From NCBI GenBank assembly GCA_964468345.1, contig CAYXVZ010000025.1, positions 5,328 through 69,327 on the forward strand: a DNA stretch of 64,000 nucleotides. The letters run 5' to 3'. This stretch comes from an uncultured Heliobacteriaceae bacterium. Lineage in GTDB: Bacteria; Acidobacteriota; Blastocatellia; RBC074. A program made the position numbers and the translations under genes. Positions 2,635 to 63,302 of this stretch are shown here, in pieces. Below the pieces are notes generated by a model that made no database searches, was not told the DNA's origin, and saw nothing but the letters and a program-made list of their open reading frames with translations. The stretch's first letter is position 1; every line of letters begins with the position of its first letter.

Positions 2635-3693
2635 TTATTTCCCCGGACCGCGCGCGTCCTTCAATTGCTGAAACCTTGCGATGGCTTCTTTCGCCTTCGC
2701 GGAGTCGCCCTGTTTTTGATAGAGGCGGCCGAGAGCGTAATGCGGATCCGCATAAGTCGCGTCGAACTCCGCGGCGCGTTCGAGCGACGCGATGGCTTCC
2801 TTCCCTCGGTTTTGTTTTTCCAGCAATAAGCCCATTTGATAATGAATCTGCGGCAGGCGATTGTCATAACGCAGGGCTTCCTGCAGGGCGCTTTCGGCTT
2901 CGGCGAGTTTGTTCTGCGCCTGCAGGGTGATGCCGAGATTGAGCGGCGGCCATGGCGAAGGCGTCGTTTGTTTCCGATTGAGTTCGATCGCCACGGCGAA
3001 ATGCTTCACGGCTTCGTCGTATTGCCCGAGATAATCGAAGCACAATCCCAGATTGTCATATGCCCTTGTCATCTGCGGCGCGAGCTCGATGACCTTGCGC
3101 AGCTTCTCGACCGCCGGTTGATATTGCTGCGCGTCGTAATCCATCCGGGCGAGCCAATAAAGGTACAGCGCTTCTTTCGGAAACTCCGCGACCAGTTTTT
3201 CCAACTCCGGCCGCGCCCAGTCCGGACGCTTCAGGCGGATGAAGGCCATGCTCATCGTGAAGCGGCTGCGCGCTTCAAGCGGCGCGATGGCCTTCGATTT
3301 CTGATAGGCGACCGCGGCATTCAGGAATTCTCCATTGAGAAAAAACACGCCGCCCGCAAACGCCAGCAAGGACGCGGCCGCCGGCGATTTCGGCGCGCGC
3401 GCCGTCTCTTTGTCGATCTCCGCGACCAGCAGTTTTTCCGCCGCGGTGTACTCCTGCCGTTTCAATAACGCCGCCAGTTCCTCGCGCTGCGCCTGCGTCA
3501 GCGGCAGATTCGCTGGATTGAGCCCCGCGGGCATCGGCATTTCGGGTGTTTGCGCCCGGGCCGTTGAAGCGATAAAAAACAGCAAAACAAAGGTTCGAAG
3601 GATCAAAGGCTCAAAGAAGATTCGTCTGTTTTTCTTTGAACCCTTGATCCTTTGAACCTTTGTGTTGAACGTTTTACACATTTTCATATGCAT
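2635..3693 (-). CDS. secreted TPR-repeat protein
   Basis: Track ORF 2635..4020 is over-extended; it overlaps the next gene. A plausible start is MHMKMCK.. (3681-3693), followed by signal peptide LILRTFVLLFFIASTARAQTP. Repeated 34-aa TPR-like units (..YYQKSKAIAP.., ..AYDNLGLCFDYLGQYDEAVKHF.., ..HYALGRLYQKQGDSAKAKEAI..). Confidence 0.7.
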   Translation of the reverse strand: MHMKMCKTFNTKVQRIKGSKKNRRIFFEPLILRTFVLLFFIASTARAQTPEMPMPAGLNPANLPLTQAQREELAALLKRQEYTAAEKLLVAEIDKETARAPKSPAAASLLAFAGGVFFLNGEFLNAAVAYQKSKAIAPLEARSRFTMSMAFIRLKRPDWARPELEKLVAEFPKEALYLYWLARMDYDAQQYQPAVEKLRKVIELAPQMTRAYDNLGLCFDYLGQYDEAVKHFAVAIELNRKQTTPSPWPPLNLGITLQAQNKLAEAESALQEALRYDNRLPQIHYQMGLLLEKQNRGKEAIASLERAAEFDATYADPHYALGRLYQKQGDSAKAKEAIARFQQLKDARGPGK

Positions 3694-4639: not shown

Positions 4640-6277
4640 ATGAAAGGCAAAAGGCAAAAGGCAAATATCAAAAGGCAAAAGTGGGGAATTCGTGTCTGCC
4701 GACAGGAATCTCGATGTATCCTTTTGCCTTTTGCCTTTCTTCTCTTCCTGATTTCGTCGCCGATCATCGCCCAGACCCCGCGCGAACAGGCGATTCTCGC
4801 CGTGCAGGATCTGATGCAGCAAAATCGCGGAGCCGAGGCAAGGCAGGCGCTGGCAGCGGGCTTCAAAAAGTTTCCGGGCGATGCGGGGCTCGAAAATCTG
4901 TTGGGCATTCTGGAGGCGCAGGAAGGGAATCGCGCCGCGGCGGAAGCGGCCTTCAAACGCGCGCTCACGCGATCGCCGGGGCTGCTCGGCGCCTATTTGA
5001 ATCTCGGCCGCCTGTATCTCGAAAGCGCCGCCACCGATCCGCAGGCGGCAGAAAAGGCGCTCGACATCTATCAGCGCGCGCTGCGCCAACAGCCGGCGAA
5101 CCCTGAAGCCAATTATCAGGCCGCTGTTTTATTGCAGCATCGGGGGGAATATCGGCTCGCGCTCGCCCACCTGCAACGCTTGCCCACGGAATACAAACAG
5201 AGCGCGCAATCGCTGGCCGTTCTCTGCGGTGTGCACGCGGGCCTCGGCAATCGGCAGCAGGCACAGGCCACAGTGGAGGCGCTCACCGTCCATCCCGATT
5301 TTTCCGAAGCGGATCTCATTGGCATTCTGCCCACGCTCGAAAAGGCGCAGCGCGAAGACCTGGCCGTGTCCTTGCTGGAATCGCTCGCCTCGCGCGGCGC
5401 GATCGGCGCGGAATTGCAGCACCGGCTGGGCCTGTTTTATGAGCGGCAGGGACACCTGGATCGCGCGCGCGCAGCGGTTGAAAAAGCCGCGGGGCCGCGT
5501 CCTTCGACTGCGCTGCTGGTTGATCTGGCCCGCATCGCGCATCGACAGCGGGACAATCAAGGCGCGCTCGGCTATCTGGCGCACGCCCGCGATCTCGAAC
5601 CGAACAACGCCTCCGTGCATTATTTTTTCGGCATGGTTTGTGTGGATCTGTTTCTCGGAGCGGAGGCCCAGGTTTCGCTCGGCAAGGCCGTCGCGCTCGA
5701 TCCTGAAAACGCGCAATACAATTATGCAATGGGCGTCGTATCGTCGTTTCGACACGATCCGGCCGAGGCGATCCCGTATCTAAAAAAGTTCCTTGCGCTC
5801 AAACCGGGCGATCCGCAGGGCACGCTGATGCTGGGCATCGTCTATTTCAAAAGCAAGGAGTATGACGCCGCGCAGCGGGAATTGCTGCGCGCGAAAGCAG
5901 ACCGGCCAAGCGCGGCGACGGCGGCTTATTATCTCGGCAGTATTGCGCGATTGAACGGCCAGCTTGAAGAAGCGATCCGCCTCGAACAGGAAGCCCTTGC
6001 GATCAATCCCAATCACGTCGATGCGCTGGCCGAACTCGGGCAGGCGCTGTTGCAGCAGAAACAATACGAGCAGGCGGAAAAGCAATTGCAGAAAGCTCTC
6101 GCGATCAATCCCGACCACTATGCGGCGAATTTCAATCTGTTGACGCTCTATAGCCGCACGCGCGATCCGCGACAGGAGCCGCTGGCCAAACGATTCGAGG
6201 AAATCAAAAAGCTTCGCGAAGAGAAGGCGCAGGACTTCCTTCGCGGCGTGGAGGTGCGGCCCTATGCCGTACCGTAG
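4640..6277 (+). CDS. secreted TPR-repeat protein (about 13 TPR units)
   Basis: Hydrophobic signal segment LLPFAFLLFLISSPIIAQTP followed by many TPR units. The ATG at 4640 and the basic N-tail (KGKRQKANIKRQK) lie inside the GCAAAAG repeat element, so the true start is uncertain. Confidence 0.7.
   Translation: MKGKRQKANIKRQKWGIRVCRQESRCILLPFAFLLFLISSPIIAQTPREQAILAVQDLMQQNRGAEARQALAAGFKKFPGDAGLENLLGILEAQEGNRAAAEAAFKRALTRSPGLLGAYLNLGRLYLESAATDPQAAEKALDIYQRALRQQPANPEANYQAAVLLQHRGEYRLALAHLQRLPTEYKQSAQSLAVLCGVHAGLGNRQQAQATVEALTVHPDFSEADLIGILPTLEKAQREDLAVSLLESLASRGAIGAELQHRLGLFYERQGHLDRARAAVEKAAGPRPSTALLVDLARIAHRQRDNQGALGYLAHARDLEPNNASVHYFFGMVCVDLFLGAEAQVSLGKAVALDPENAQYNYAMGVVSSFRHDPAEAIPYLKKFLALKPGDPQGTLMLGIVYFKSKEYDAAQRELLRAKADRPSAATAAYYLGSIARLNGQLEEAIRLEQEALAINPNHVDALAELGQALLQQKQYEQAEKQLQKALAINPDHYAANFNLLTLYSRTRDPRQEPLAKRFEEIKKLREEKAQDFLRGVEVRPYAVP
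4643..4740. repeat. GCAAAAG-heptamer composite palindrome, copy 1
   Basis: Left arm AAAGGCAAAAGGCAAAAGGCAAATATCAAAAGGCAAAAG, 38-nt spacer, right arm CTTTTGCCTTTTGCCTTTC. Arm sequence is shared with 22590-22680 and 42850-42885. Confidence 0.8.
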
Positions 6278-6296
6278 GGAGCATGGAGTTGCTTGG

Positions 6297-6610
6297 TGGT
6301 GGAACAGGTTAGCAACCTTGTCATTCCCCACATTTTTCGTGTTTTCTTGCGGCCCGAATAGACCCAATTTCCTTAAAAAGCGGTGCTTTTCCAGGCTCCA
6401 GAGGAGCCGAATGTTTATAGTTCGCGCGATTGCTTACGCCCCAAGCTCCGTAGGGGCGAAATGTGCCACATTCCGCTCCTGCGGAGCTTGGGGGCATTTT
6501 CGGCCTGATTCTATAAACATTCCGCCCTCCGGGGCGAATCCGCCACTGAACAAGAGATCCGGAAAATGAAAAGATGTGGGTAATGACAAGGTTCATAACC
6601 TGTTCCACCC
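6297..6610. mobile_element. MITE-like element: 36-bp terminal inverted repeats flanking a structured ~240-bp core
   Basis: Left TIR GGTGGAACAGGTTAGCAACCTTGTCATTCCCCACAT (6297-6332). Right TIR 6575-6610 is its reverse complement with 3 mismatches. The core has nested palindromes (GGCTCCAGAGGAGCC; AGCTCCGTAGGGGCG..CGCTCCTGCGGAGCT; AATGTTTATAG..CTATAAACATT). No ORF. Confidence 0.7.
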
Positions 6611-6685
6611 GGGCGCTTGCCATCTTCCCTTGCTCAATGTTTCGAACCACCACTGATGCGGCCGATTGCAAGACGACAAATCAAC

Positions 6686-7630
6686 ATGCTTGACCTATCT
6701 GGCTTCAAATCCCTGTCTCTTTCTTTGCTTCTGGTATTCTTGTCCATTTCACTCTCCGCGCAAACGCCGGAGATTTCGCGCGCGCTTGATCGGGCGGACT
6801 ATCAACGAGCGGAGAAGCTCGCCTCGGCTTCGTTGCGCACGCGGCCGCGCGATGTCTCGCTGCGACTGCTGCTGGCGCGCGCGATTCTGGGGCAGGGCCG
6901 CTTTCGCGAAGCCGTCGCGGCATTGCGCGGCGTGTTGACGTTCGATCCGAAAAACATCGATGCGCTTTATTACCTGGGCCTCTCGGCCAGTGCTTTGTCG
7001 CAAATGGAATTCGAGCGGCTCTATGCCCTCGCGCCGGAATCGTATCGCGTGCATCAACTGTTAGCCGAGGCCGCGCTGGCGCAGGAAAACCCGGCCGAAG
7101 CGGAAACCGAATACCTGGCCGCGCTCAAGCTCGCTCCCGATTCGCCGGAATTGTTGATCGCCCTGGCAGAGTTGAAACGGACGCAGTCGAAATACGACGA
7201 AGCGATTCCGCTCTATTCCCGCGCGGCGGAAGTGAGCGGAATGAACTACGACATCGCGTATGGCCTCGGGGCGAGTTATTCCTATCAACAGGATTACAAG
7301 CGGGCCGCGGATCATTTTCGGCAGGCGGTGAGGTTCGCGCCGGATGCAACGGCTGCTCGCTATGGGCTGGGAAATGCGCTCTTCCAACTCGGCGAGACCG
7401 AAGCCGCCGTGACGGAGTTGCAGGCTGCGGTTCGGTTGCTGGATACACAGAAACAGGCATGGTTTCTGCTCGGGCGCGCCTATCAAAAACTTGGCCGGCA
7501 GGCTGAAGCCAAAGAAGCCTTCGCCAAAATCGAAGCCATCACCGCGCGGGAATTACAGCGGGAGCAGGGAGCGAGTCGGGAAGAAGAGAAAATCAAAAGG
7601 CAAAGGGCAAATGGCAAAAGGCAAAAGTAA
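6686..7630 (+). CDS. secreted TPR-repeat protein
   Basis: Start taken at MLDLSGFKSLSLSLLLVFLSISLSAQTP (signal peptide). Track ORF from 6617 would begin inside the MITE-like element. TPR units follow. The C-terminal tail ..KIKRQRANGKRQK* is encoded by the GCAAAAG repeat. Confidence 0.7.
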   Translation: MLDLSGFKSLSLSLLLVFLSISLSAQTPEISRALDRADYQRAEKLASASLRTRPRDVSLRLLLARAILGQGRFREAVAALRGVLTFDPKNIDALYYLGLSASALSQMEFERLYALAPESYRVHQLLAEAALAQENPAEAETEYLAALKLAPDSPELLIALAELKRTQSKYDEAIPLYSRAAEVSGMNYDIAYGLGASYSYQQDYKRAADHFRQAVRFAPDATAARYGLGNALFQLGETEAAVTELQAAVRLLDTQKQAWFLLGRAYQKLGRQAEAKEAFAKIEAITARELQREQGASREEEKIKRQRANGKRQK

Positions 7631-7662
7631 AGAGAGGGTCTTTACTTTTGCCTTTTGATTTT
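7590..7662. repeat. GCAAAAG-family palindrome, copy 2; probable bidirectional terminator
   Basis: GGCAAAAGTAAAGA-gaggg-TCTTTACTTTTGCC is a perfect 14-bp stem, nested in AAAATCAAAAGG...CCTTTTGATTTT. Lies between convergent genes. Confidence 0.8.
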
Positions 7663-7663
7663 C

Positions 7664-8590
<927 letters not shown>

Positions 8591-8684
8591 TGAGATGCCT
8601 CTTTCGGAAAAAGTATGAGTCTATCCTTAGACTTGCTTGTTAGTGCATACCTTAGCAGAACCGGGGAGGATCTCAAAATCTGCC

Positions 8685-9090
8685 CGGGAAAGTCTGGGGA
8701 AGTCTGGACAAGTCTGGAGAAGTCTCGGGAAGTCTGGAGAAGTCTCGGGAAGTCTGGAGAAGTCTCGGGAAGTCTGGGGAAGTCTGGAGAAGTCTGGAGA
8801 AGTGATTGATTTATTGGTCTCCCATATTTTCCTGGCTCCGGAGGAGCCATATATTTCTAGACATAAGTTCGCTTTCATTCCGCGCTCCGTAGGAGCGCCA
8901 TCTGCCCAGATGGCGCTCCTACGGAGCGCGGAATATGGGGGCGGGCCATGCTATAAATATTCGGCTCCGCTGGAGCCGTTACCATTCGAGGCTTCAGTGG
9001 TCGGTGCTCAAGACTTCTCAAGACTTTTCAAGACTTTTCAAGACTTTTCAAGACTTTTCAAGACTTCCCGAGACTTGCCCCGACTTCCCC
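8685..9090. repeat. composite palindrome: (GRGAAGTCTS)x12 array, structured core (8822-8975, related to the 6297-6610 core), then inverted (AGACTTYTCA)x8 array
   Basis: Direct decamer array 8685-8803. Core has GGCTCCGGAGGAGCC, CCGCGCTCCGTAGGAGCGCC..GGCGCTCCTACGGAGCGCGG, CTATAAATATT, GGCTCCGCTGGAGCC. Inverted decamer array at 9008-9090. Confidence 0.85.
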
Positions 9091-9604
9091 TCTTTATGCA
9101 TCTGCTGATACTTCTCGCGCAGGCGGAGCGTGAATTCCATTTCGGAGCTGACCGATCGCAGGGCGAGCCGCGTTTCGGCGATCAGCATCACGCAGCCATA
9201 AAATAAAATGACGGTGCCGATAATGCCCAATGTATTGGGCAGCCAGAGAATTTTTTGGGCGACCGGCGGCAGAATGGAGATGAATCCCACGGCCACCATC
9301 GCGGCGACAAAGGTGCTCAAGGCGACGTAAAAACTGGTCAGGGCGTTTTGAATCAGGCGGGTGCGGCGGGCATGGATAGAGATCTGGCGCTCGACCTCGA
9401 TGCGGCGCTCTTCCGGAAAATCGAGGGTTTCCTCCGACTTGGCCATCTCTTCGATCACGCGGCGAAGCTCGCGCACGCGATCGACAATCCGCGCCAGGCG
9501 GGCCGAGGTGGAAATAACGAGCGTCCCGCATGCCGAAATCAGCACGGCGGGCGTGATCATCGCGCTCAGGACATTGAGTCCGGTGCTTGTGGCGTCTTGC
9601 ATAT
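9048..9604 (-). CDS. DUF2721-like small membrane protein
   Basis: Start at MQDATSTGLNVL (cat at 9602-9604); track ORF 9048..9785 is over-extended through the GGGGCGAG repeat. The C-terminal tail KEGKSGQVSGSLEKS is encoded by the GAGAAGTCT array. Has a coiled segment plus 2 TM helices (FYVALSTFVAAMVAVGFISIL / LGIIGTVILFYGCVMLIA). Confidence 0.55.
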
Positions 9605-9605
9605 G

Positions 9606-9748
9606 GGAAAGGGGCGAGGGGCGAGGGGCGAGGGGCGAGATGAAAATGCCGAGTGAGGCGTTAAATTCGTTGCTGTTTATCGCACGGGTGTTAACTCTGC
9701 ACTCCACATTTCCTTCTCGCCCCTCGCCCCTCGCCCCTTTCCTCCTGC
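9606..9748. repeat. GGGGCGAG-octamer composite palindrome, copy 1
   Basis: GGGAAAGGGGCGAGGGGCGAGGGGCGAGGGGCGAG ... ~75 bp ... CTCGCCCCTCGCCCCTCGCCCCTTTCC, between the PCD and DUF2721 genes. Confidence 0.85.
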
Positions 9749-10224: not shown

Positions 10225-12369
10225 TTGCGCTCGGGGAGCGAATTTATACTTATGATAAATGAACGTATGCTTGATCGTCGTTTGGGGCTCGATCCGGCGA
10301 CCCTGATTGGTGTCTATCGCACCATGTATACCTCACGGCGACTGGACGACAAGGAGCTGTTGCTCAAACGACAAAACCGCGTTTTCTTCCAGATCAGCGG
10401 CGCCGGCCACGAAGCGGTTCTCGTTGCGGCGGGCCTGTTATTGCGCCCCGGTTACGATTGGTTTTGGGCCTATTATCGGGATCGCGCCCTGGCATTGCAG
10501 TTGGGAATCACGCCGTATGAGCACCTGCTCGGCGCAGTGGCCGCGCAGGAAGATCCGTTCTCGGGGTCGCGGCAGATGCCGTCGCATTGGAACAATCCGA
10601 AGTTGCATGTGTTTCCGCGTTCTTCCTGCACGGGGACGCAGTTTTTGCAGGCCGTGGGCGCGGCCGAAGCGGGCTATCGGTATTCGATGATCAAAGAGAT
10701 CGAAGATCGCGCTTCGCACTTCAAGCAGAATGAAATCGTGTATGTCTCCGCCGGCGACGGCACGACGAGCGAGGGCGAATTCTGGGAATCGCTCAATACG
10801 GCGTGCAATCTGCGCTTGCCGGTGCTTTACCTGATCGAAGACAACGGATACGCAATCTCGACGCCGGTCGAGGTGCAGACTGCGGGCGGCAGCATTTCGC
10901 GCCTCGTCGCGGGCTTTCCTTCGCTTTATATCGAGGAATGCGACGGCACGGATTTTCTGGAAAGCTATGAAACGCTCGGCCGGGCAATCGATTATTGCCG
11001 CGAACGGCGCGGGCCCGCACTTGTGCATGCACATGTGATCCGCCCCTATTCGCATTCGCAGTCGGACGACGAAACGCAGTACCGCCCTGAAGAAGAGCGG
11101 GCGGCCGATGCGGCGCGCGATCCGATTATGCGCTTCGGCAATCTGTTGCTTCGCGAAGAGATTGCAACGCCCGCGGAATTGCAGCGCGTGCGGGATGAGG
11201 TCGATGCGGAAATCAACGAGGCGGCCGATCGGGCGCTGCAGTTGCCGCAGCCGCCGAAATCGTCGGCGACCATGTTTGTGTATTCGCCGGACGTCGATCC
11301 GACATCGCCGACTTTCGATACGGAACGCCAGGTCGAAGTCAGCGGCAACGAAGGCACGATGGTCGATCTGATCAATCGCTGCATTCATGAAGAGATGGAG
11401 CGGAATCCGCGCATCATCGTTCTCGGGCAGGATGTGGCCGATGCCAGCCGCTCGGAGTATCTCAATCGCGTGAAGGGCAAAGGCGGCGTCTTTAAGGTGA
11501 CGGCGAACCTGCAGCGCGATTTCGGCAGCGACCGCGTCTATAACACGCCGCTGGCCGAAGCTAACATTATGGGCCGCTCGCTCGGCATGGCGGCGCGCGG
11601 GTTGAAGCCCGTGGCCGAAGTTCAGTTCTTCGATTACATCTGGCCGGCCTTTATGCAGATGCGCGATGAGGTGGCGTTGCTGCGATGGCGTTCGAACAAC
11701 ACCTGGAAGTGCCCGATGGTCGTGCGCGTTCCCGTGGGCGGCTATCTCAAGGGCGGCGCGATCTATCACAGCCAGTCCGGCGTCTCGACCTTCACGCAGA
11801 TTCCCGGCTGGCGCGTGGTGATGCCCGCGACGGCGCTCGATGCCAACGGCCTGCTGCGCACGGCGATTCGTTCGGACGATCCGGTACTCTTTCTCGAACA
11901 CAAGCATCTGTACCGGCAGGCGTATAATAAGAGCCAGTATCCGGGCCGCGATTTCATGATTCCCTTCGGCAAGGCCAAGGTCGCGCGCGAAGGCACCGAT
12001 CTGACGATCATCACCTTCGGCGCGCTCGTCCAGCGTTCGCTGGTCGCGGCCAAGCAGGCGGCCGAATCGGATATCAGCGTCGAGGTCATCGACCTGCGCA
12101 GCCTGAGCCCGTACGACTGGGCCGCAATCGAGCGCAGCGTTAAAAAGACCAATCGCGTGATTGTCGCGTATGAAGATCCGCTCTCGTGGGGCTATGGCGC
12201 CGAGATCGTTGCGCGCATCGCGGATGAACTCTTCGATCACCTCGATGCGCCCGTTCGCCGCGTCGCCGCGCTCGATTGCTTCGTCGCCTATGCGCCGGAT
12301 GTGGAAGACGCCATCCTGCCGCAGGTGGAAGACGTCGTCCGCGCGATTCGCGAGACCGCTACGTACTGA
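10225..12369 (+). CDS. TPP-dependent 2-oxoacid dehydrogenase E1 component, fused alpha+beta subunits
   Basis: N-half is E1-alpha-like ([14 protein letters not shown].., [36 protein letters not shown]). C-half is transketolase/E1-beta-like ([50 protein letters not shown]). Start could be Met at 10252. Confidence 0.8.
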
Positions 12370-12371
12370 GA

Positions 12372-12468
12372 AGACGGAGAGAAGGAGGGACGGAGAGAAA
12401 GAGGGAAAACGCTAAATCGAAGCTTTTATCCCTCTTTTGCTCCGTCTTTCTTTCTCTCCATTACATTG
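12372..12468. repeat. GA-rich/TC-rich tandem-17-mer palindrome after the E1 gene (terminator-like)
   Basis: GACGGAGAGAAGGAGGGA-CGGAGAGAAAGAGGGAAAA ... TTTTATCCCTCTTTTGCTCCGTCTTTCTTTCTCTCC. Imperfect complementarity between two GA-rich units and two TC-rich units. Confidence 0.6.
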
Positions 12469-12502
12469 CCTTCCAAAACAAAAAGTCTGCATTGCGAGGT
12501 CA

Positions 12503-12652
12503 GCCCCGTGCAACGGGGCTTGCCCGAAGGGCTATTAGCCGGGCGCTTCAGCGCCCGGCTACCGGCGAATCAATCCCAAAGCCCCGTTCACGGGGCTTTC
12601 CCGAAGGGCTACTAGCCGGGCGCTTCAGCGTCCGGCAGCTGGCGAATCGATC
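12503..12652 (+). repeat. tandem direct repeat, 2 x ~73 bp, each unit with three hairpins, ending 9 nt before the MOSC start codon
   Basis: Unit 1 at 12503-12575 and unit 2 at 12580-12652, about 85% identical. Hairpins GCCCCG-tgcaa-CGGGGC, GCCC-gaa-GGGC, AGCCGGGCGC-ttca-GCGCCCGGCT. Differences between units fall mostly in loops. Confidence 0.8.
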
Positions 12653-13161: not shown

Positions 13162-14187
13162 ATGCGCAAATTCCTCTTTCAACGATTGCTTGCGATCGTG
13201 CCGCTGCTCTTTGCCGTGGCGCTGGGCGCGTTTCTGCTCGTGAAACTGGCGCCGGGCGATTTTCTTTCCGACTGGAGCCAGAATCCGCAGATTTCGCCGG
13301 AGATCATTGCCCGGGAGCGGATGCGCCGCGGCCTCGATCAACCGTGGCATGTTCAGTTTCTCAGATGGCTGGGGATGATTGCGCGCGGCGATTTCGGGTA
13401 TTCCTTCGCCTATCACCGGCCCGCGTCCGCGTTATTGGTCGAGCGCCTGTGGAACACGATCGTACTGGCCATCGGCGGCCTTGGGACGGCGCTCGCAATC
13501 GCGGTTCCCTCGGCCGTGTATGCCGCGCGTCATCGCGCCGGCTGGTTCGATCGCGCCGCGGCTGTCATCACGGCCTTTTATCTCTCGATGCCGTCCTTTC
13601 TGCTGGCTCTGCTTGCGCTCGTGTTTGCGGCGCGCACCGGTTGGTTTCCGATTGGAAAAAGCAGTTCCCTCGATGCGGGCGGGTTTTCATTTTTCGAAAA
13701 GCTGGCGGATGGCGTTCATCACTTGATCCTGCCCGCCCTGGTGCTGGCCGCGGGACAGGCGCCGGCTTATTTCCGGCAGCTTCGCGCAAGCTTGCTCGAA
13801 ATCATTACGAGCGATTTCATTCTTGCGGCCCGGGCCCGCGGTTTTGGAGAAAAACGCATCTGGATCTCGCATGCGCTTCGCAATGCGATCAATCCCACCA
13901 TCACGATGTTCGGGCAATCGATCGGCGCGCTGCTCTCGGGCGCGTTTATCGTCGAATCCATCATGTCCTGGCCGGGACTGGGCAGCCTCGCCGTGCGTTC
14001 GCTGCTGGAACGCGACCTCTATGTGCTGGTCACTTGCCTTCTGTTCGCGGCGCTTTTGCTGATGCTGGGAAACCTGCTGGCGGATGTTCTGTTGCTGTGG
14101 AGTGATCCGAAAAGCAGGGATGAGGGATTAGGGGCGAGGGGCGAGAAAAACAGGGGGGCGAGGGGCGAGGGGCGAGAAAAGCAGTGA
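13162..14187 (+). CDS. ABC transporter permease (DppB/OppB-like, peptide/nickel type)
   Basis: Six TM segments. EAA-like loop LILAARARGFGEKRIWISHALRNAINPTI. The C-terminal tail GLGARGEKNRGARGEGREKQ is encoded by the GGGGCGAG repeat. Confidence 0.8.
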   Translation: MRKFLFQRLLAIVPLLFAVALGAFLLVKLAPGDFLSDWSQNPQISPEIIARERMRRGLDQPWHVQFLRWLGMIARGDFGYSFAYHRPASALLVERLWNTIVLAIGGLGTALAIAVPSAVYAARHRAGWFDRAAAVITAFYLSMPSFLLALLALVFAARTGWFPIGKSSSLDAGGFSFFEKLADGVHHLILPALVLAAGQAPAYFRQLRASLLEIITSDFILAARARGFGEKRIWISHALRNAINPTITMFGQSIGALLSGAFIVESIMSWPGLGSLAVRSLLERDLYVLVTCLLFAALLLMLGNLLADVLLLWSDPKSRDEGLGARGEKNRGARGEGREKQ

Positions 14188-14319
14188 TGAGGAAAAAGGG
14201 GAGAGTTGAGTCTATGCCACTAAAATCCATTTTCACGAAGGCGCGCTCCCTCGCCCCTCGCCCCTCAACCCTCGCCCCTGCCCTTCTCGCCCCTCGCCCT
14301 TCGCCCCTCGCCCCTTTCC
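14117..14319. repeat. GGGGCGAG-octamer composite palindrome, copy 2, spanning the junction of two permease genes
   Basis: (GGGGCGAG)n with A-rich interruptions at 14117-14185. Inverted (CTCGCCCC)n at 14248-14319. Contains the stop of 13162..14187 and the putative start of the next gene. Confidence 0.85.
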
Positions 14320-17154: not shown

Positions 17155-17317
17155 AACTCATCCCGGAGGGATGACAGCAACCAAATCAGAACAAAATACT
17201 TTGGGATAGTTTTACCACGGGGACCATGGGGAAATGACAAATAGATTCAACCTCCCTGCGCCCCCAATGTATCTACAGATGTTTGATCGTTGAATTTGTC
17301 CCGAAGGGACAACGGAG

Positions 17318-17502
17318 ATTAGCCGGTGGTGGAGCGAAGCGTAACCACCGGAACAGCGTGAAAAGATTTCGCGTCCCGGCAGGGACGCCGGACCAGTACT
17401 CATTTTCTGAATACCATCGCTTTGGTCCGGCGCCCCTGCCAGGGCGCAATACAATACTTAATCTATCCGGTGGTTACGCTTCGCTCCACCACCGGCTAAT
17501 CT
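17318..17502. mobile_element. MITE-like element: perfect 36-bp inverted repeats flanking a 113-bp core
   Basis: GATTAGCCGGTGGTGGAGCGAAGCGTAACCACCGGA (17318-17353) and its exact reverse complement at 17467-17502. Each arm is internally palindromic (CCGGTGG..CCACCGG). Small hairpins flank it (GTCCCGAAGGGAC at 17299, GCGCCTTTGGCGC at 17510). No ORF. Confidence 0.7.
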
Positions 17503-17559
17503 CCGTTGCGCCTTTGGCGCAAAGAGTTTTGTGACAGGGTGTCACGATTGCTGGCACGC

Positions 17560-42786: not shown

Positions 42787-42817
42787 TTGCGATCTTGAAG
42801 TGAATCGGTAAAGAAGA

Positions 42818-42888
42818 AAATCAAAAGGCAAAAGTAAGAACGCTCTTTACTTTTGCCTTTTGATATTTGCCTTTTGCCTTTTGATTTC
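42818..42888. repeat. GCAAAAG-family palindrome, copy 4; probable bidirectional terminator
   Basis: GAAAATCAAAAGGCAAAAGTAAGA-acgc-TCTTTACTTTTGCCTTTTGATATTTGCCTTTTGCCTTTTGATTTC, between convergent genes. Confidence 0.8.
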
Positions 42889-48652: not shown

Positions 48653-48742
48653 GCTCTTTTCCGAATTTTGTTTTACAAGACCTTTCCAACGCATTCCTTC
48701 TCTCCTTCTCCTGCCTGATTCTTTTTGATCAGTTCGTTATTA

Positions 48743-48806
48743 ACCAAGAAGAAACGAAGAACACGAAGCCTTCTCTCCTTCGTGCTCTTCGTTTCTTCGT
48801 GGTTGC
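48743..48806. repeat. CACGAAGAR-nonamer palindrome
   Basis: AACCAAGAAGAAACGAAGAACACGAAG-(12 nt)-CTTCGTGCTCTTCGTTTCTTCGTGGTT. Arms are 3 tandem ~9-mers. Lies between the EamA and Lrp genes. Confidence 0.85.
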
Positions 48807-50724: not shown

Positions 50725-50728
50725 GAAA

Positions 50729-50985
50729 TTCACCACGAAGACACGAAGAGCACAGAGCAGCGAAGCCGCAACCAAATCAATGAAAGAGAGAAACGGAAAT
50801 AACGGAACAGACGGAATAGACAGCCTTTCTCTTTCGTTTATTCCGTTATTTCCGTTTGTTCCGTACTCTCTCTTCTCACAGCGCAAATTTCTTGCTGAAA
50901 ACAAGAAGTTGCTCTTGTGTTTCACGAAGAAGAAAAGAACCACGAGCGCCTTTTTCTTCGTGCTCTTCGTGTCTTCGTGGTGAAT
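50729..50985. repeat. nested composite palindrome: outer CACGAAGAR arms enclosing an inner (AACGGAANAN)x3 palindrome
   Basis: Outer TTCACCACGAAGACACGAAGAGCAC (50729-) pairs with CTTCGTGCTCTTCGTGTCTTCGTGGTGAA (50955-50985). Inner GAAACGGAAATAACGGAACAGACGGAATAGA pairs with TCGTTTATTCCGTTATTTCCGTTTGTTCCGT. Fills the gap between convergent genes. Confidence 0.8.
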
Positions 50986-50986
50986 C

Positions 50987-51322
50987 TCAACCTTTCTTCT
51001 TGGATTCCGCCAGGAAATCGCCGAGTCGATCCAGACGGCGTTGCCACGTTGTGCGGCGATCGGCGATCCAGCGTTCGGCCACGGAAAGGCCCGCCGGTTC
51101 GAGGCGGCAGGTGCGGACGCGGCCTTCTTTCTCGGTCCGCACCAGGCCGCTTTCTTCCAGCACCTGCAAATGCTGCACAACGGCGGCCAATGTCATATCG
51201 AGCGGCTCGGCCAGCCGCGAAACAGAGATCGGCTCTTCGCTCAGCCGCTCCAGAATGGCCCGCCGCGTCGGATCGGCCAGCGCGCGAAAGACCTGATCCA
51301 GGTTGGCCGCCACGCTACGCAT
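50987..51322 (-). CDS. ArsR/SmtB-family transcriptional regulator
   Basis: ..FRALADPTRRAILERLSEEPISVSRLAEPLDMTLAAVVQHLQVLEESGLV (winged HTH). Confidence 0.8.
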   Translation of the reverse strand: MRSVAANLDQVFRALADPTRRAILERLSEEPISVSRLAEPLDMTLAAVVQHLQVLEESGLVRTEKEGRVRTCRLEPAGLSVAERWIADRRTTWQRRLDRLGDFLAESKKKG

Positions 51323-55899: not shown

Positions 55900-56016
55900 G
55901 ATCAGTGCAAACAACTTTGGGACAAAGCTTTTACCACGAAGAAACGAAGAGCACGAAGAAAGACGAAAGAATAAGCCTTCTCTCTTTCTTCGTGCTCTTC
56001 GTTTCTTCGTGGTTGT
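55900..56016. repeat. CACGAAGAR-nonamer palindrome with conserved 5' flank
   Basis: CAGTGCAAACAACTTTGGGACAAAGCTTTT then ACCACGAAGAAACGAAGAGCACGAAGAAAGA-(19 nt)-TCTTTCTTCGTGCTCTTCGTTTCTTCGTGGT, a perfect 31-bp stem. After the STK gene. Confidence 0.85.
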
Positions 56017-62579: not shown

Positions 62580-63095
62580 ATGAAGGTGCGAAATATATTC
62601 TTCGTTGTCATTGCTGTGTCGATCCTCGGCATCGCAACCCTCTATGCGCAGGAAGGCGGCCGCCGCGGCCGTCCGGGCGGGCCTGAGATGATGCGTCGCT
62701 TTCCCGTGATGGCTGTGCTGGATGCAAACGCCGATGGCGAGATCTCAGCGGAAGAGATCACCGGCGCCTCCGCGGCCTTGCGCAAACTCGATAAAAACGG
62801 CGACGGCAAACTGACGGAAGAGGAAATCCGGCCGAATTTTGAAGGCGGTCCCGGCGGCCGGCGCGGCGAAGGACCCGGCGGCCCCAATCCCGAGGAAATG
62901 GTCAACCGCCTGCTCGAATTCGATAAAAACAGCGACGGCAAACTCAGCAAAGACGAAGTGCCCGAGCGAATGAGCGGCCTCTTTGAACGCGGCGACGCCA
63001 ATAAAGACGGCGTCCTCACCAAAGACGAACTGCGCAAACTCGCCGAAGCGCAATCCGGTGGCAGCCCCCGCCGCGAAGACCACGATCACGAGTGA
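62580..63095 (+). CDS. secreted EF-hand calcium-binding protein (4 EF-hand loops)
   Basis: Signal peptide MKVRNIFFVVIAVSILGIATLYAQ. Loops DANADGEISAEE, DKNGDGKLTEEE, DKNSDGKLSKDE, DANKDGVLTKDE. GGAGAAG Shine-Dalgarno before the start. Confidence 0.75.
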   Translation: MKVRNIFFVVIAVSILGIATLYAQEGGRRGRPGGPEMMRRFPVMAVLDANADGEISAEEITGASAALRKLDKNGDGKLTEEEIRPNFEGGPGGRRGEGPGGPNPEEMVNRLLEFDKNSDGKLSKDEVPERMSGLFERGDANKDGVLTKDELRKLAEAQSGGSPRREDHDHE

Positions 63096-63302
63096 AAGTC
63101 CAGAGAAGTCTAGAGAAGTCTCGGGAAGTCTGGAGAAGTCTCGGGAAGTCTAGAGAAGTCTAGAAAGGTCTAGAAAAGTCCCGAAAAGTTTCGAATCGTC
63201 TGAATGGTAGAACTTAGAACTGTATTGACTTCCCGAGACTTCTCAAGACTTCTCCAGACTTTCCGAGACTTCTCAAGACTTCTCAAGACTTTCCGAGACT
63301 CT
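63096..63302. repeat. GAGAAGTCTN-decamer composite palindrome, copy 2 (no embedded core)
   Basis: (CAGAGAAGTCTAGAGAAGTCTCGGGAAGTCTGGAGAAGTC...)x~10, a ~32-bp centre, then the inverted array (GACTTCCCGAGACTTCTCAAGACTTCTCCAGACTT...). Confidence 0.85.

Follow-up and report, generated by a model that had tools for sequence, protein, structure and literature searches.

The 64,000-nt stretch of contig CAYXVZ010000025.1 analyzed here (hereafter the window) carries two large palindromic elements, both of them intergenic. Element A (314 bp, 6297-6610) lies between two TPR genes, 4640-6277(+) and 6656-7630(+), and element B (406 bp, 8685-9090) lies between a UbiA-family gene, 7664-8590(-), and an open reading frame (ORF), 9094-9531(-). 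We use the term core for a unit of four small hairpins, P1 to P4, and the term shell for the outer inverted arms around it (Table 1). The two cores (6394-6537 in A and 8834-8977 in B) are each 144 nt long and are 73% identical over 144/144 nt. Both follow the same plan: P1, a tail, a spacer, a central hairpin with P2 and P3 in its arms, a second spacer, a mirrored tail, and P4. P1 is a 5-3-5 palindrome of the form GGCTCC-NNN-GGAGCC and is followed by a tail of 12 nt, GAATGTTTATAG in core A and the degenerate ATATATTTCTAG in core B. A spacer of ~18-20 nt separates this tail from the 27-28-bp central hairpin, each arm of which holds one small palindrome (P2, GCTCC-GTA-GGRGC; P3, GCTCC-TRC-GGAGC); the second spacer, the mirrored tail CTATAAAYATTC, and P4 lie beyond. 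The starts of successive small palindromes are separated by 50, 30, and 48-49 nt in A and B alike. With a self-complementarity of 78-81%, the cores are nearly strand-symmetric.

The initial annotation of this DNA, made from the sequence alone, had proposed that A and B share a series of ordered sub-palindromes. All the motifs that it listed were found at their positions in both cores, and the shared order is confirmed by a local alignment score of 57 between A and B, relative to 17.7 ± 2.4 in 500 dinucleotide shuffles (z = 16.6). Together with matches to a family profile at E near 1e-30 (see below), this score excludes that the likeness is limited to GC-rich palindromes expected by chance. The motif GCTCCNNNGGAGC, with at most one mismatch, occurs at 10 sites in the window, seven of them within A and B (shuffles: mean 3.95, maximum 8). 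Folded as single-stranded DNA, element A (6297-6610) is predicted to reach -88.2 kcal/mol and the inner part of element B (8804-9006) -63 kcal/mol, in both cases with z = -11.1 relative to shuffles.

A family of four-hairpin repeats in several phyla

We scanned one genome per species with a pattern of three palindromes at the observed spacing, and at least 120 stretches matched. The palindromes of the listed loci are spaced by 49-50, 28-37, and 49-50 nt, as in the window, and these loci have in common the hairpin, a tail of the form ATGTTTATAG, and a gnCATnTG extension of P2 and P3. A hidden Markov model (HMM) was then built from 50 cores of other genomes, leaving out the sequence of the window. 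Searched against the whole 64 kb, it gave just two matches, one at 6394-6537 (E = 7.7e-31) and the other at 8834-8977 (E = 5.8e-28), both over the full length of the model. A family HMM matched 117 of the 120 loci listed, a count that is partly circular because the HMM was built from a subset of those loci; the genome of the window is not among the 120. Among the matches listed, the HMM-positive loci comprise 68 Acidobacteriota (Blastocatellia, Pyrinomonadaceae, and Chloracidobacterium), 38 Bacteroidota, 4 Verrucomicrobiota, and 6 metagenome-assembled genomes (MAGs) labelled Heliobacteriaceae, and the family is spread over unrelated gene contexts in these several phyla. The genes of the window find their best nucleotide matches in loci of Acidobacteriota, probably the phylum of the source organism.

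The repeat is present in several copies per genome. The 120 listed loci yielded 168 distinct HMM hits, with up to seven loci per MAG among the matches listed, and the window itself holds two copies in 64 kb, both intergenic. Copies of the same genome are more alike (median identity 80%, maximum 99%) than copies of different genomes (median 67%), as expected if the repeat is amplified within genomes. The two window cores are 71-77% identical to the family consensus, from which the left tail of B and P4 of A depart; given this divergence, both are probably old insertions. Across ~170 copies from other genomes, conservation ends ~6 purine-rich nt beyond P1 and P4. The shells therefore lie outside the family unit, and these conserved outer nucleotides explain the TTTTCCWG found to the left of both window cores. 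A full-text search with motif strings returned only unrelated primers, and the literature on REP, RAYT, TIRYT, and the host taxa, of which our coverage is incomplete, consisted of general papers, none of them on this repeat.

The repeat brackets a gene for a Y1 HUH transposase

Clustering of the ORFs of the listed loci revealed a recurrent protein of ~155 aa, whose gene directly adjoins hairpin units in 10 of the 120. This protein matches the Pfam family Y1_Tnp (PF01797) with 86 bits (cutoff 23) and the NCBIfam IS200 equivalog with 68.5 (cutoff 55). The motifs D-H-x-H and Y-x-x-x-Q are invariant in the alignment of these transposases, which come from related loci and none of them from the window. 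The proteins are 153-159 aa long and present the motifs DHVH, DHIH, or DHLH, a WQ motif (WQEGFGAF), and YIxNQExHH (YIQNQESHH, YILNQEKHH). Judged by motif and length only, they fit the Y1 HUH "subclass 1.2" of Quentin et al. 2018. Among solved structures, the TnpA proteins of ISDra2 and IS608 come closest, at a marginal E of about 1e-4.

The full unit, as found in other genomes, begins on its left side with P1 (5-bp stem and 3-4-nt loop, consensus GCTCC-GTA-GGAGC), followed by 3 nt, the tail ATGTTTATAG, a spacer of ~25 nt, P2, gnCATG, and the transposase gene. The right side mirrors the left with P3, a spacer, CTATAAACAT, and P4. The gene is apparently rare relative to gene-less copies.

We then reversed the search and picked 80 metagenome loci by the protein alone, out of at least 582 stretches encoding relatives. 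A GCTCC-N3/4-GGAGC hairpin was found within 250 nt of the Y1 gene in 53 of these 80 loci, on both sides in 37 of them, compared to 1 of 251 control windows located at least 700 nt away. The family HMM likewise matched in 53 of the 80. Units are in forward orientation upstream of the gene in 29 loci and in reverse-complement orientation downstream in 34. The nearest upstream hairpin ends at a median of 29 nt before the ATG, with loops that are mostly GTA, GTCA, or GTTA, and the nearest downstream hairpin starts at a median of 13 nt after the stop codon, with loops that are mostly TAC, TGAC, or TAAC. When the ORF was removed in silico, a near-full-length match to the family HMM ran across the junction in 31 of 72 loci. 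Since removal of the ORF regenerates the core, the four-hairpin core corresponds to the transposase unit minus its gene. In the window, where there is no such gene, P2 and P3 lie next to each other and together make up the 27-28-bp central hairpin, the tip of which marks the place that the gene occupies in the full unit.

Some of these loci present further particularities. In two of them (L116 and L105), the TAG stop codon of the Y1 gene spans the loop and the first 3'-stem base of a GGCTCCG-TAG-GAGCC hairpin, and the reading frame therefore enters the repeat. In a soil metagenome (L131, 61-1209, aligned to 11180-12328 of the window), a Y1 unit stands immediately downstream of a homologue (73% identity) of the gene at 10225-12369; at the same position, the window has other hairpin elements (12373-12652). 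Head-to-tail tandem arrays of hairpin units, with periods of ~25, 50, 126, and 165 nt and often beside a Y1 gene, replace the inverted four-hairpin form in seven loci (L007, L049, L061, L068, L106, L121, and L146).

Compensating changes in the hairpin stems

Sites anchored on the tail in the protein-selected loci presented a perfect 5-bp hairpin at a fixed offset in 162 of 190 cases. These hairpins comprise 26 stem types, including GCTCC/GGAGC, GCCCC/GGGGC, ACTCC/GGAGT, and GCGCC/GGCGC, i.e., with compensating differences. A perfect stem was also found at 163 of 240 tail-anchored sites of the genome-derived loci, relative to 0.9% of random positions. In an ungapped alignment of 145 units, changes on both sides of the stem occupied 101 cells vs. 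34 ± 4 in shuffles. The stem covariation score was 0.384 against 0.193 after shuffling (0/500 shuffles reached the observed score), and it was at most 0.200 when the 3' partners were slid. These substitution patterns indicate selection on the structure of the hairpin. The loop is most often GTA (64 of 162 units and 33 of 51 P2 hairpins), and a G comes next. On the long central stem, the resulting GTAG occupies the 5' foot, yet it lies inside a mini-hairpin, of which it forms the loop and the first stem base.

Shells and nesting in other palindromes

The outer inverted repeats of A and B had been described as completely different, and we indeed found no sequence common to both shells. The shell of A is an inverted repeat, as the initial annotation had it, but not of 36 bp: its arms (6298-6337 and 6570-6609) measure 40 nt and are 90% complementary. 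Each arm is a small hairpin itself. Core B stands in the middle of the loop of its decamer shell; the spacers on its two sides, of 30 nt (8804-8833) and 29 nt (8978-9006), are non-complementary. The right arm of this shell comes within 4 nt of the stop codon of ORF 9094-9531(-). A hairpin of decamer arrays that lacks a core lies at 63094-63300, beginning at the stop codon of a gene that ends at 63095. When it is aligned to element B, the arrays align and the loops have only a short CGAATGGTA-like stretch in common. Nearly all the inverted-repeat hairpins of the window, including A, B, and 63094-63300, begin 0-25 nt after a stop codon. We infer that the shells are hairpins of the host that lie at the 3' ends of genes, in terminator-like positions. 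A BLAST search with the shell and spacer sequences of A and B against the ~200 loci fetched from other genomes gave no real matches.

A related strain (L001), with flanking genes 84-98% identical to those of the window, presents at the site of A only GGTGGAACAGGTTA-c-TAACCTGTTCCACC, which is the outermost 14-bp stem of A; the 284 bp from 6312 to 6595 thus fill the loop of a hairpin that is empty in this strain. In other genomes, cores are found within unrelated inverted tandem arrays, made of the heptamer GCAGTAG in a Blastocatellia MAG (L111) and of an 8-mer in Flavobacterium (L027). For 10 of 47 cores, the complementarity of the flanks exceeded the 99th percentile of permuted controls. One subfamily of Blastocatellia has an outer inverted repeat, GCATTAGTTTCTACACAAGT, that is conserved with the core in several loci and MAGs (L019, L035, L051, and L110), and some shells therefore travel with the core. 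Target-site duplications, which the initial annotation had suggested looking for, were not seen around the cores or the composite elements on direct reading of the window sequence. Their lack is expected for Y1 transposition, although it is not diagnostic.

Hairpins made of inverted arrays of short tandem repeats, many with units of 7-10 nt, are found throughout the window (3583-3667, 7587-7664, 9606-9742, 12373-12460, 14109-14315, 42810-42874, 48742-48804, 50725-50988, 55933-56013, and 63094-63300). The repeated units comprise two heptamers (GGGGCGA and AAAAGGC), two types of 8-mer (CACGAAGA and CTTTGAAC), the decamer GAAGTCTNGR, and a 16-mer. We saw inverted arrays of a similar kind in nine loci of Acidobacteriota and Bacteroidota (L008, L027, L051, L066, L074, L110, L111, L123, and L124), and these hairpins recall the short tandemly repeated repetitive (STRR) heptamers of cyanobacteria. 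The related strain (L001, Logan SRR29398965) also differs from the window over 6589-8745: its UbiA and TPR genes are separated by a gene for a 1229-aa trypsin-like/BACON protease. Upstream, its TPR gene is preceded by a different hairpin, of the AAAAGGC type, and its UbiA gene by the same decamer array. The arrangement of genes near the elements thus changes from strain to strain.

A probable gene-less transposase unit and the case against it

We interpret the two cores as non-autonomous copies of a small Y1 transposase unit from which the gene is missing. Such copies would resemble REPINs, miniature inverted-repeat transposable elements (MITEs), or PATEs (palindrome-associated transposable elements, which are gene-less IS200/IS605 derivatives), and we estimate the probability of this interpretation at roughly 80%. 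The elements had been described as modular, possibly mobile, and nested in other palindromes, and each of these suggestions gained support. The unit common to the copies of other genomes stops short of the shells; double-hairpin modules bracket a Y1 HUH gene elsewhere, removal of this gene regenerates the core, and copies of the same genome are more alike; nesting is illustrated by the bare hairpin of the related strain, the core-less hairpin at 63094-63300, the heptamer and 8-mer arrays, and the ten cores with complementary flanks. The two "palindromes within palindromes" would then be explained as ordinary biology, i.e., as the ends of a gene-less transposase unit in terminator-like hairpins.

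By analogy with IS200/IS605 TnpA and with RAYT/E. coli TnpA_REP (PMC6006769, PMC3333891, PMC3733652), the hairpins would fold in single-stranded DNA. A dimer of the cognate Y1 enzyme would bind in trans to the hairpins together with the conserved tail or GTAG and would cut at a defined position close to it. The element would be excised and reinserted, or copied, without target duplication. Its location at hairpin tips may have two explanations: the loop of an extruded hairpin could offer single-stranded target DNA, or a palindromic insert at the tip could be tolerated when it leaves the host stem intact. Movement and insertion at hairpin tips are what we infer from these sequence comparisons. 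The outer units resemble weak inward intrinsic terminators, and a secondary role as terminators is therefore possible.

Several points weigh against this interpretation. The Y1 gene is absent from the 64-kb window (tblastn), and the enzyme that would act in trans is assumed to be encoded elsewhere in the genome. The ~155-aa protein reaches 28.8 bits with the NCBIfam RAYT model REP_Tyr_transpos, far from its cutoff of 80, and no transposition event was observed. The pattern used for the scan had fixed GCTCC stems, which biased the genome-derived set; we used the protein-selected loci where this bias mattered. The difference between A and the related strain could reflect an insertion or, equally, the central deletion of a long palindrome, of which the short direct repeats present in the shell of A (AGGTT...AACC) are possible mediators. 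Only ~1/5 of the cores in other genomes have clearly complementary flanks, so that location at a hairpin tip is no rule. Finally, the survey of the protein subclass listed no REPs (PMC6006769), and the link between repeat and enzyme therefore stands on the present statistics.

A broader claim would be that the cores are the repeat population of subclass 1.2 Y1 enzymes across Acidobacteriota, Bacteroidota, and Verrucomicrobiota and, jointly, that they integrate preferentially into the single-stranded tips of extruded gene-3'-end palindromes made of inverted tandem arrays. We regard this joint claim as tentative and would sooner doubt it than rely on it. If true, it would add tip targeting, undescribed for Y1 elements as far as we found, to a subclass that the literature lists without repeats. 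The recurrent nesting at tips would also provide a natural test of extruded palindromes as single-stranded targets.

Alternative explanations

It is possible that shell and core form one unit, such that the 314-bp A and the 406-bp B move as composites or that arrays arise around a landed core by slippage or template switching. This would account for the GCATTAGTTTCTACACAAGT outer repeat that accompanies the core in four loci, for the second shell of A (6314-6337 and 6570-6593) being missing from the related strain together with the core, and for the recurrence of cores flanked by inverted tandem arrays. It is nonetheless unlikely: the decamer shell of B occurs core-less at 63094-63300, as do several other array hairpins of the window, and the array unit differs each time (decamer in the window, heptamer in L111, 8-mer in L027). 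In addition, family homology ends ~6 nt outside P1 and P4, the shell sequences of A and B are not in the other ~200 loci, and about 37 of the 47 cores lack complementary flanks.

The cores might instead be kept for a role in RNA or transcription, as bidirectional terminators, mRNA-stabilizing hairpins, or structured non-coding RNA. Their position is suggestive, since a stop codon precedes both cores and almost all other inverted-repeat hairpins of the window by 0-25 nt, and a simple scan calls each P1 and P4 unit (a hairpin with the T-rich ATGTTTATAG) an inward-facing terminator-like site. Covariation of the stems fits RNA as well as DNA. We consider this explanation quite unlikely, however, because the stems are only 5-7 pairs long and the T-run of the tail is weak. 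The two strands of the element are nearly alike, it is found among unrelated genes in several phyla, and elsewhere it brackets a transposase gene whose deletion regenerates it. No Rfam 15 covariance model matched the window at gathering scores, and at E up to 10 the region 6250-9150 gave only chance-level hairpin matches to miRNA models. The regular spacing of the 5-3-5 palindromes also resembles that of protein-binding sites, and the four palindromes could form an array of operators to which a dimeric protein binds, for example a regulator or nucleoid protein. The compensating changes of stems whose sequence itself is unconserved fit a folded single strand rather than a duplex operator, and the units occur in unrelated gene contexts and in association with a transposase. 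Such an array is very improbable, as is a chance likeness of A and B, which the alignment and profile statistics exclude. Among other candidates, attC sites, CRISPR repeats, and iteron- or origin-like arrays were rejected: the observed motifs do not fit them, and the transposase link accounts for the data.

Table 1. Palindromic features of elements A and B and of the core-less decamer-array hairpin, in window coordinates.
Feature	Sequence	Position	Strand	Remarks
A outermost stem, left arm	GGTGGAACAGGTTA	6298..6311	none	stand-alone hairpin in related strain
A second shell, left arm	AACCTTGTCATTCCCCACATTTTT	6314..6337	none	missing in L001 and all other fetched loci
Core A		6388..6543	none	member of the four-hairpin family; profile match 6394-6537
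Core A, P1	GGCTCCAGAGGAGCC	6394-6408		
Core A, tail	GAATGTTTATAG	6409-6420		
Core A, central hairpin		6439-6493		arms 6439-6465 / 6467-6493, 89% complementary
Core A, P2	GCTCCGTAGGGGC	6445-6457		
Core A, P3	GCTCCTGCGGAGC	6475-6487		
Core A, mirrored tail	CTATAAACATTC	6511-6522		
Core A, P4	CGCCCTCCGGGGCG	6523-6536		variant CGCCC-TCCG-GGGCG
A second shell, right arm	AAAGATGTGGGTAATGACAAGGTT	6570..6593	none	inverted repeat
A outermost stem, right arm	TAACCTGTTCCACC	6596..6609	none	stand-alone hairpin in related strain
B shell, left arm		8685..8803	none	11.4 tandem copies of decamer GAAGTCTGGR
Core B		8828..8983	none	member of the four-hairpin family; profile match 8834-8977
Core B, P1	GGCTCCGGAGGAGCC	8834-8848		
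Core B, tail	ATATATTTCTAG	8849-8860		degenerate
Core B, central hairpin		8877-8934		arms 8877-8904 / 8907-8934, 100% complementary
Core B, P2	GCTCCGTAGGAGC	8884-8896		
Core B, P3	GCTCCTACGGAGC	8915-8927		
Core B, mirrored tail	CTATAAATATTC	8951-8962		
Core B, P4	GGCTCCGCTGGAGCC	8963-8977		
B shell, right arm	TCAAGACTTT and variants	9007..9090	none	inverted decamer array
Core-less decamer-array hairpin		63094..63300	none	arms 63094-63180 / 63227-63300, ~42-46 nt apart

Other hairpin elements and assembly breaks

The window contains a second nested-hairpin element (2364-2597), which begins 7 nt past the stop codon of a gene ending at 2357 and has no match to the core HMM. Its design is core-like but with another hairpin, GCCCGC-GGAT-GCGGGC, and another tail, GGAATGTAG; this hairpin recurs in the arms of a 32-nt central hairpin (2447-2520), with a CCCAGGG...CCCTGGG hairpin on each side. 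The element may represent a sister family of repeats that has a Y1 enzyme of its own. Multi-hairpin elements of unrelated sequence also lie between genes at 17295-17523 and 12502-12652; one of them is a 58-nt inverted repeat (91%) with several GC-rich mini-hairpins, and the other consists of 1.9 tandem copies of a 77-nt unit with three mini-hairpins.

Short-read (Logan) contigs of the same organism (L002-L004, L205, and L206) end at 6494-6498, the center of core A, and at 8739-8745, within the decamer array of B. These palindromes thus break de Bruijn assemblies, and such elements are probably under-represented in short-read MAGs. We found no contigs crossing A or B when searching with the exact proteins of genes 4640-6277 and 9094-9531, and the same search with genes 6656-7630 and 7664-8590 returned only short-read contigs that stop inside the palindromes.

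Comparison with known systems

The repetitive extragenic palindromes (REPs), BIMEs, and REPINs that form "REPtrons" with their RAYT enzymes in E. coli, Pseudomonas, and Stenotrophomonas (PMC3333891, PMC3733652, PMC6006769) are like the core family in many respects. They are short intergenic palindromes with several copies per genome, mostly located after gene 3' ends, without target duplications. They form larger hairpins by inverted pairing, as do the central hairpins at 6439-6493 and 8877-8934 with one GCTCC-N3-GGAGC unit per arm, and a single small gene for a Y1 HUH protein has the repeats on its flanks, which for the core family is the case in other genomes and not in the window. The central hairpin reads GTAG, a 12-bp stem, and CTAC, which may correspond to the arrangement of "double-foot" REPs (PMC6006769). 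The two differ in the protein, a class 2 RAYT in REPtrons and an IS200-like class 1 protein in the core family; in the position of GTAG, which in the core family takes up the loop of a 5-bp mini-hairpin and the first base of its stem; in the two hairpin modules and ATGTTTATAG tail that the core family has on each side of its 144-nt four-hairpin unit; and in the hosts, which are Proteobacteria for REPtrons and Acidobacteriota, Bacteroidota, and Verrucomicrobiota for the core family.

TnpA_Y1 subclass 1.2 was defined by the signature DH[IV]H / WQ / Y---Q--HH, a median length of 148 aa, and a specific C-terminal tail, and it was reported in Bacteroidetes (PMC6006769). Its describers listed it without REPs and without typical terminal structures (PMC6006769). 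The automatic REP search of that survey demanded GT[AG]G at the foot of the stem (PMC6006769), which may explain why the repeats were missed. The hairpin-flanked proteins found here carry the signature motifs, have a similar length, and also occur in Bacteroidetes. They differ from the published description by the hairpin units beside the gene in 53 of 80 protein-selected loci and by their many hosts among Acidobacteriota, which are not listed for subclass 1.2 (PMC6006769).

The TIRtrons with TIRYT enzymes (PMC3733652) and the class 3 Y1 transposases of Acidobacteria and Planctomycetes (PMC6006769) also consist of Y1 genes flanked by long inverted repeats, which are sometimes double-palindromic. 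Like the core family, their flanking repeats are moderately abundant families and are present in Acidobacteria. Their signatures are different, namely NHVH and YV..EQ for class 3, with CnGA-foot and GGGGWSAS motifs in the flanks. We saw no sequence relation between these and the unit GCTCC-GTA-GGAGC with ATGTTTATAG.

MITEs of DDE transposases with terminal inverted repeats, such as Correia/NEMIS and ERIC, are small, gene-less, intergenic, palindromic, and multi-copy, and their terminal inverted repeats are bounded by target-site duplications. In contrast, A and B lack duplications, homology of the cores ends in a purine-rich stretch of ~6 nt, and the enzyme is Y1 HUH and not DDE. The IS200/IS605 elements are closer: they have a transposase that is also a Y1 HUH enzyme and belongs to the same Pfam family, no target duplication, and hairpins near their ends that are recognized as single-stranded DNA, as predicted for the core family. 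Their gene-less derivatives consist of two joined ends, as do the gene-less copies obtained in silico in 31 of 72 loci. The ends of IS200/IS605 elements are, however, distinct and in the same orientation, whereas those of the core family are inverted copies with two hairpins each; the protein of the core family is only marginally similar to the solved TnpAs (E about 1e-4), and its gene is rare compared to gene-less copies.

The core system thus resembles both REP/REPIN-RAYT systems and the gene-less derivatives of IS200/IS605, and it fails one defining feature of each. In our view, the association of the repeat with the subclass 1.2 enzyme is moderately novel, and it is accompanied by an unexplained liking for hairpin tips. 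A widespread repeat family of soil bacteria that is tied to a Y1 subclass reported without repeats would provide, outside of Proteobacteria, a protein and a DNA substrate whose pairing can be tested.

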